Shown here one piece after another: positions 28,976-52,117 of a stretch of DNA of 64,000 bases. The stretch comes from Lama guanicoe (lineage: Eukaryota). The DNA is taken from positions 6,123,977 through 6,187,976 of the forward strand of contig MU056146.1 of NCBI GenBank assembly GCA_013239625.1. The letters are read 5' to 3'. Within the stretch, counting starts at the first letter, position 1. Each line of letters begins with the position of its first letter. Below the pieces are notes generated by a model that saw nothing but the letters and a program-made list of their open reading frames with translations, ran no database searches and had not been told where the DNA came from. The position numbers were made by a program, and so were the translations under genes.

Positions 28976-29114
28976 CTGCTCATGCATGATTTCCGAAAGC
29001 TCTTTTGCCATTTCCTTGTAGTTGGCCTTCATTTCTTCCTGGTACTCTAACTGGTCCTCTTTGATTAACCGTTCATTTACCGCCAAGGCTTGCCCGCAAG
29101 CTTCCACAAATTGT
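28976..29114 (-). CDS. DOCK9: DOCK9 coding exon ([47 protein letters not shown])
   Basis: tttcag|A ... CAG|gtaagt; 139 nt. Confidence 0.96.
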
Positions 29115-49684: not shown

Positions 49685-49791
49685 CTCATTGAAGTGGACA
49701 TCCTGCATACCGACGTCCTCCATCATGGAGGCCTCTTCATCGATGTTCGGGGTGATCACCCTGAAGGCTGAGCATCCTTGTCTGAACATGC
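49685..49791 (-). CDS. DOCK9: DOCK9 coding exon ([36 protein letters not shown])
   Basis: ttctag|GC ... GAG|gtgagt; 107 nt, phase 1/0. Confidence 0.96.
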
Positions 49792-50465: not shown

Positions 50466-51156
50466 GGACAAACCCCTTAAGCAACAGTGGCCCACTGGGA
50501 ACCTTGACTCATCCAGGAGTCACCGGGAAGAGTTTTATGTCAGTTAGACAATGTCAGCTGAGTAAAAACGATCAAGTGAAGAAGGATCTGAAAAGTCTTC
50601 CTACTCTACTGTGGTCGCTGTTTACATCAAAGCGAAACAAAACAGAAGTCAAAACTTGAATTGAGACCTCCCATGTTGCGGGGGGAAAAGGAACACAGGG
50701 TGTTTTGAAATCAAGTCTTGAAAGACTACGTCATAGATTCCGAGATGTTCCCGCTGCACACAGGGAAGGCTTCCACACCATTCATGAATTGGGTCACATC
50801 TCTGCCACTGTCCTACTTCAGCCTTGGTCTTTTTTTACAGACAGATTCCGCTGTGAAAAGCAGTGGGCGCTTGAGGATACGTGTGTGAACAAAAAGCAAG
50901 ATGATAAAAGCCAGCTACGCATGTTTCTGGCTACGGAGTACATTGCAATACACAGCTCAGCTCTGGTGGAACAGCTACGGTGGTGGCTCAAGTGCTGTCT
51001 TCTCCTTGCCCACAGGGACAGGCTGCACCAAACCAGAGAAGGGAGGAAAAAGAGGGAGGGCCACGTCCATCCAAGTGGGTGAGAGAGGAAACCCCTACAC
51101 CTCTGAGCGTTGCACGGACAGGGCTGCTGGAGCTCTGGGACCCCCCTCGGCTTAGG

Positions 51157-51234
51157 CTGCCCAGCACCTCCTGTGACTGGTGCAGTGCCTGTAGGGGAGG
51201 TGGGGTGGCTCCGGCTGGAGGGACACATCTGCTT
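51157..51234 (-). other. DOCK9: Homologue of the DOCK9 alternative cassette exon (EADVSLQPEPPHLPYRHCTSHRRCWA), donor apparently degenerate
   Basis: Acceptor gtttag|AAGCAG. The in-phase translation resembles the human insert recalled as EAVQWEPPLLPHSHSACLRRSRG. The expected donor position reads GCAG|cctaag, with no GT. Confidence 0.7.
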
Positions 51235-52059
51235 CTAAACACGAGATGTTCTACCTGACAAAAGGTCTCATGCTGGGAGAGAGAATGTGGAGCCCTTCCT
51301 TGATTTCTTTCTCTGATGTATGACAAGCCTAACTCCCTTAAATTCCATTCCAAAAAGCCAGCTGTGCCAGGAAGATAGAAATTCCCTGGCCTTGCCATCT
51401 GTGACTTTATGTTTCCTCACGTTGTGAAGGTCCTCCTTGTTACTAGAGCTGGTGCTGCCCGGCTCCACACACATGCACACAAAATCAGCTTTTCTAAAAC
51501 ACCATGTTCTCGATTCTGAAGTGTTAACTGGTATTTAATCAGAGGAACCGGCAGAGGACTCATGGCCTGCTAATGTGGGAATAAATGCTCACTCCTGCCC
51601 GCTCCTTCCACGGGAACGCAAGGTTTCCGGGCAGCAGGCTGCCTGCTTACACAACAAAGCCAACTGGGCTGTGCTCCAGAAAATATTGTCTGATGACCTC
51701 CTGTTACAGCTGCCTTTTGATTGATAAACACTTCAAGTGGGAACGATCTTAAGGGAAAATTAAGTCTTTTCAGCTTGCGATTGGCCAGTCAGAGGCTCCC
51801 AGATGCAAAGCTCATTAACTAGTTTTTGCAGGATGGGTTATTAGTAAGAGCTTACATGACAACATGCCATCTACTTCTGTTTTGCATTTCAGCAGTTCCT
51901 ACTGAGTCAAGCAAATATCATGTTAGCAAACAAAACAATGAATATAGTGTGTGCACACACACATCCCTCACCTCCAAATCCTTCCGAATGGCTCTCACTC
52001 ATCTTTGCTGCTTTGTACAATTTTATATTTATTTCATAAAACAAAGGAATATTCCTTAC

Positions 52060-52117
52060 CTTTCCGTGTGAGATATTCTGCCACCAGGGCTGTGACATGG
52101 ACATAGCACATTGCTGC
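52060..52117 (-). CDS. DOCK9: DOCK9 coding exon (AAMCYVHVTALVAEYLTRK+G)
   Basis: ttgtag|GCA ... AAAG|gtaagg; 58 nt, ends in phase 1. Confidence 0.96.

Follow-up and report, generated by a model that had tools for sequence, protein, structure and literature searches.

This locus raises the question of whether a cassette exon of DOCK9 that has kept its acceptor and its reading frame can still be spliced into the mRNA. The window, i.e., the whole stretch of 64,000 nt that was analysed, harbors the 3' part of DOCK9 on the minus strand, with 15 coding exons located by tblastn between 61824 and 26883. Over 14 compared exons, the protein encoded in the window and the dromedary record disagree at 1 of 648 residues; the corresponding number is 7-15 for pig, whales, horse, dog, bat, mouse and chimpanzee, and the window is therefore of camelid origin. 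In the translation of the exon starting at 29114 (minus strand), residue 33, at the catalytic end of DHR-2, is K in the window and R in dromedary and eight other mammals. The cassette is flanked by a constitutive exon of 58 nt ending in phase 1 (52060-52117, minus strand; tblastn and boundary mapping) and by a downstream constitutive exon of 107 nt (49685-49791, minus strand), with introns of 825 and 1365 nt in between. A 301-nt stretch around the cassette had a single match in its own genome.

A first, sequence-only reading had described an intact acceptor followed by 78 nt open in phase 1, and this was confirmed. The acceptor (51235-51254, minus strand) retains its AG in gtttag, ending at 51235, and the exon (51157-51234, minus strand; phase 1-1, 26 codons, delimited by tblastn and an insert profile) reads EADVSLQPEPPHLPYRHCTSHRRCWA in phase 1 from 51234 to 51157. 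Since 78 is a multiple of 3, skipping of the cassette keeps the frame when the 58-nt exon is joined to the 107-nt exon. The acceptor is poor in pyrimidines (9/17, compared with 8-15 for 15 other acceptors of the gene), with extra AGs just 5' of it and in-frame alternative AGs before 51231 and 51228. The tandem TAG-AAG-CAG array that had been pointed out is indeed present, but it probably does not set this genome apart, because it follows from the conserved E-A-D codons: mammalian inserts start with E in 44/44, A in 43/44 and D in 36/44 cases. A pyrimidine-rich acceptor (15/17) lies at 51272-51255 (minus strand), 38 nt 5' of the cassette acceptor, with CAG|gtagaa 18 nt further on; the phase-1 mini-exon would carry TGA and is probably due to chance. 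In the intron below the cassette, a 13-nt unit is repeated in tandem at 50462-50431 (minus strand) in two to three copies.

Protein searches and cluster look-ups yielded 336 proteins, and 159 of these carried a 26-aa insert at the cassette point, in 44 distinct versions. Bearers of this insert comprise whales, horse, carnivores, bats, a mole, rodents, xenarthrans, afrotherians and marsupials, and the records obtained for marsupials and placentals contain it in intact form. The optional insert that the sequence-only reading named for human and mouse has 26 aa in mouse, but 23 aa in the primate records (chimpanzee, marmoset, vervet). Other shorter inserts that keep the frame occur in a beaver model (25 aa, using the second AG of the NAGNAG) and in some Myotis bats (25 aa). 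Bird, reptile and fish records contained no homologous insert, and showed only skip forms or unrelated predicted extensions. Skip forms were common (97 of 337 proteins) and include the 2WM9 construct, the crystallised DOCK9 DHR-2, as well as the sole dromedary record seen. The two pig records found were skip forms as well, and no pig, ruminant or camelid insert was present among the matches listed (best 120 of 206 and best 120 of 150; cluster representatives). This absence is not evidence of loss, because the listing consists of cluster representatives only.

A profile of the 44 inserts scored 32.0 bits at the window cassette; among 127,840 six-frame placements in the window, no other scored above -28.2. 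A chance match of the putative cassette to the mammalian insert is excluded by this profile search. By tblastn, the inserts of rat, bat, mole and opossum and one further insert matched within the intron solely at the cassette; the chimpanzee 23-aa insert gave no match within the intron. Neither tblastn nor the profile revealed an orthologous cassette elsewhere in the intron, which left the original assignment standing. The window peptide equals the mammalian consensus insert at 14 of 26 residues. In the insert-bearing record P0241, the insert lies within Pfam PF06920 (DHR-2 lobe A). An AlphaFold2 model of the insert-bearing fragment from rat had a mean pLDDT of 37 and was unusable. On sequence grounds, 51234-51157 of the window is the orthologue of the mammalian 78-nt DOCK9 cassette exon in lobe A of DHR-2.

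Right after the cassette, the window reads CCTAAG (51151-51156, minus strand), which contains no GT, and an in-frame TAA follows one codon on, at 51154-51152. The same sequence was present in two further sequencing runs (X17 and X18, see below). The proposed loss of the 5' splice site was thereby borne out; the vestige of the donor most likely lies one base later than proposed. We scored donors with a position weight matrix (PWM) made from general donor frequencies, which serves as a rough guide; 14 real DOCK9 donors scored between -0.18 and 8.9, with a median of 5.8. Imposing GT at 51156 resulted in a score of 0.1. Reading the CC as a single G resulted in CAG|GTAAGC with a score of 7.2 (gene median 5.8) and an exon of 78 nt. 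In the horseshoe-bat model P0180, the insert is lengthened by 21 residues and ends at the homologue of the GT at 51100. The back-translated end of P0180 aligned to 51169-51101 with a score of 28.9, compared with a mean of 2.8 and a maximum of 23.9 for 200 shuffles, and its first extension codons place the old donor at the present CTAAG (51155-51151). Because of the bat codons and the PWM scores, the lesion most likely consists of a changed +1 G plus one extra base, and the ancestral donor was most likely GT(A/G)AG at 51155-51151. A metagenome scan for outgroup DNA gave 13 loci; the inspected ones, L002-L006, contained no match to the cassette, and among them L002 covers the intron and appears to be of non-mammalian origin.

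It had been claimed that GAG|gtgctg is the sole plausible internal donor, which proved too narrow. An in-phase GT before the stop is present only at 51177 (PWM -6.2), in addition to two weak in-phase GCs, and a downstream GAG|gtgtag (51095-51100, minus strand) marks the point where the extended exon of the horseshoe-bat gene model ends. Other candidate donors scored -0.9 (51167), 0.9 (51188, a GC) and -0.07 (51100, close to the weakest real donor of the gene at -0.18). Continued use as a coding exon in the window lineage would have the very weak GT at 51177 as its sole option, with an exon of 57 nt. The window cassette is followed by no donor that would be usable.

We compared the window over 50850-51550 (701 nt) with contigs assembled from the sequencing runs X6, X17, X18 and X20. 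X6 was identical to the window over this interval and may be a source of the assembly. X17 and X18, which come from two other studies, each gave one contig, and the two contigs shared the same 14 substitutions and the same 2 indels relative to the 701 nt of the window. One indel is an insertion of 1 nt, and the other removes 20 nt within the exon (51184-51203, minus strand; codons 11-18); these 20 nt are kept in the window and in X6. The X17 and X18 contigs are unspliced, have lengths of 2.3 and 1.6 kb, and may be DNA. No difference from the window was seen at 51156-51155 in X17 and X18, and no contig had a GT there, so there was no sign of the consensus error that the sequence-only reading had asked about. 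An assembly error or a private allele is a very improbable cause of the absent GT. Such an origin would be helped by the use of contigs, which drop rare variants, and by the fact that all 14 DNA runs with sequence are flagged as possible assembly sources. Against it, 9 of 24 listed runs (DNA; four organism labels, four studies) contained a share of 1.00 of 257 sampled words, where one changed base costs about three words and would lower the share to 0.99, and X17 and X18, unflagged as sources, have the same lesion. We concluded that the missing GT is not an assembly error, because X17/X18, an about 2% diverged relative, share the broken donor.

As judged from these contigs, an inactivating splice-site lesion is fixed in a lineage. 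The insert persists in whales and horses, so that an origin of the lesion on the camelid line is the simplest account. The loss of the donor would be younger than the separation from whales and horses and older than that of the two lineages compared. The divergence of about 2% of the X17/X18 lineage would fit the split between Old World and New World camelids, which took place about 16-17 million years ago.

The relic also carries signs of later change. Six residues of the window peptide were unseen in the 44 orthologous inserts. When each orthologue was left out in turn, the number of unseen residues was 0 (25 orthologues), 1 (18) or 2 (1), a comparison that favours orthologues with close kin in the set of 44. 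The profile score of 32.0 compares with 64.7 for the weakest orthologue. Between the window and X17/X18, the exon showed 3/58 substitutions, the 20-nt deletion aside, and the flanks 11/623 (Fisher p 0.11); the exon was no more conserved than the flanks, and the rate excess, for one lineage pair, was not significant. Two of the three exon substitutions are silent, and the third changes Q to H on the window side. This residue, position 21, is Q in 42/44 inserts, and since X17 and X18 keep Q, the H of the window arose after the split. The 20-nt frameshifting deletion together with the six unseen residues speaks for later decay of a dead exon.

The regulation of the exon is known from mouse. According to Table 1 and file mmc3.xlsx of PMC9550651, a 78-nt cassette of mouse Dock9 (chr14:121577347-121577424, mm10) is among 39 high-confidence ESRP-regulated exons. 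The same source gives delta-PSI values of 0.40 and 0.32, and an inclusion in epidermis of 0.489 in the control and 0.164 without Esrp. The mouse exon sizes (58 nt for C1, 78 nt for exon A and 107 nt for C2) equal those in the window, and the mouse introns of 730 and 1327 nt compare with 825 and 1365 nt. Among 12 mouse and rat isoforms there was only one optional block of 26 aa. Because of the 58/107-nt neighbours and this sole 26-aa block, the ESRP-enhanced mouse exon was taken as the orthologue. While the mouse exon has a PSI of about 0.45-0.49 in epidermis, the window cassette has lost its donor and meets a stop next; neither GT nor GC, one of which a functional ESRP cassette needs as its donor, is present where the exon would end in frame. 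Judged from the isoform blocks, the Nova2-regulated Dock9 exons 37a/37b (PMC4633719) are a different event from this cassette. A microexon of 6 nt (39649-39644, minus strand; GCAGCG, Ala-Ala) is intact, with the consensus donor gtaagt, and thus another optional DOCK9 exon has kept its own donor. Rodent isoforms contain a corresponding optional AA block, and the background list of PMC9550651 includes a 6-nt Dock9 exon that is probably the same one.

If ESRP still drove the acceptor in epithelia, splicing at 51167, 51188 (GC) or 51100 would lead to a premature stop, NMD and less DOCK9. We consider a poison exon of this kind unlikely. In its favour, the acceptor AG is retained in both lineages, the mouse orthologue is ESRP-enhanced, and a poison exon tolerates indels, hence is compatible with the 20-nt deletion. 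The donors at 51167 and 51188 shift the frame, so that the next exon would be read for 17 codons before a stop, and an exon reaching to 51100 takes in the TAA, with eight further coding exons downstream. If 51188, 51167, 51100 or 51009 were used, a later junction would lie over 50 nt beyond the stop. Against this, the candidate donors are all weak (PWM -0.9, 0.9 for the GC, and -0.07), and the two lineages show no excess conservation (3/58 in the exon and 11/623 in the flanks). TGG motifs downstream of the cassette were not enriched either: there were 7 in 250 nt, and 22 of the gene's 139 bins had at least as many. In the deletion lineage, an exon ending at 51100 would no longer be a poison exon.

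The deletion has a further consequence for this donor. In the window, an exon extending to 51100 has 134 nt and a stop inside; in X17/X18, it has 114 nt (134 - 20), is in phase 1 and open. The deletion would put the 51100 donor in frame and could allow a new insert of 38 aa. The shifted frame is open to 51102, with four substitutions there that create no stop, and the bat model P0180 uses the homologous donor, with an alignment score above the shuffle maximum (28.9 vs 23.9). Even so, such a revival as a coding exon is improbable. By chance, one deletion in three would fall in frame, the donor at 51100 scores weakly, the bat isoform comes from one predicted model, and the dromedary record is the skip form. 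The revival would also need a prior interval as a dead or poison exon. The shifted-frame peptide had no match in 1.84 billion representatives, which is a weak argument, as DOCK9 isoforms collapse at 50%. We give equally little weight to a combined history, in which the exon died and was revived or repurposed, so that epithelia of the deletion lineage would make a 38-aa insert in lobe A, and the window lineage would have an ESRP-driven poison exon through the same donor.

Our preferred explanation, which we hold to be probable, is that the donor was destroyed in a camelid ancestor, so that the exon would be undefined and skipped and full-length DOCK9 would be made with a short lobe A. An exon without a GT for binding of U1 would not be defined, and the 58-nt exon would be spliced in frame to the 107-nt exon, giving the short lobe A of the crystallised DOCK9 DHR-2. 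The cassette is likely skipped in every tissue, and the relic is likely decaying as neutral intron. The predicted outcome is the loss of the ESRP-enhanced epithelial isoform with retention of the DOCK9 protein. With the donor lost and a further deletion in the relative, likely only the shorter DOCK9 protein is made. The one camelid protein record available, from dromedary, is the skip form. The RNA run X20 had a share of 0.05, about that of the two flanking exons alone, and no contig over the cassette; this would fit skipping, but we do not count it as evidence, since such a blank can be false. Against a dead exon one can hold that no splice junction was present in the contigs compared, that the acceptor AG is kept, that the reading frame is intact in the window, and that the weak donor at 51100 falls in frame, without a stop, in the deletion lineage. 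The lineage-specific exon death proposed at the outset is nevertheless supported by the orthology, the lesion shared with the relative, the extra frameshifting deletion and the drift of the peptide.

A related case is known from the same family. According to PMC6812646, the CH1 exon of camelid IGHG2/IGHG3 was lost through a G-to-A donor mutation, the exon being retained in the DNA and skipped in frame through the mutated donor. CH1, however, is a constitutive domain, and a new antibody class came about when some of the paralogues lost it, while in DOCK9 the segment is an optional one of 26 aa in a single gene, skipping is inferred, and no benefit is known. Mammalian cassette-exon losses as described in PMC2231371 are similar in that an optional exon is gone in one lineage and retained in others. 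In the account given there, losses mostly hit rarely included or frame-shifting exons; the DOCK9 cassette, in contrast, preserves the frame, is about half included in mouse epidermis and is kept from marsupials to whales. Lobe A is the DOCK dimer interface and supports catalysis, as stated in PMC10152721; literature searches revealed no function for the 26-aa insert. In a selection scan of dromedaries (PMC11446216, Table 2), DOCK9 is a candidate region in one population, with no tie to the cassette in that table. No report of a loss of the DOCK9 cassette was found in the open-access literature, and PMC4633719, PMC11446216 and bioRxiv 10.1101/2022.06.15.496229, as far as consulted, do not concern such a loss. 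Exon loss through donor mutation is a known process, and the DOCK9 case is apparently unreported.

The finding is a modest result of comparative genomics without a new mechanism, and it would gain weight if the downstream donor proved to be used. If true, it would provide a dated example of a regulated exon decaying in two lineages. Camelids would then be a natural knockout, showing that an insert retained from marsupials to whales can be dispensed with.
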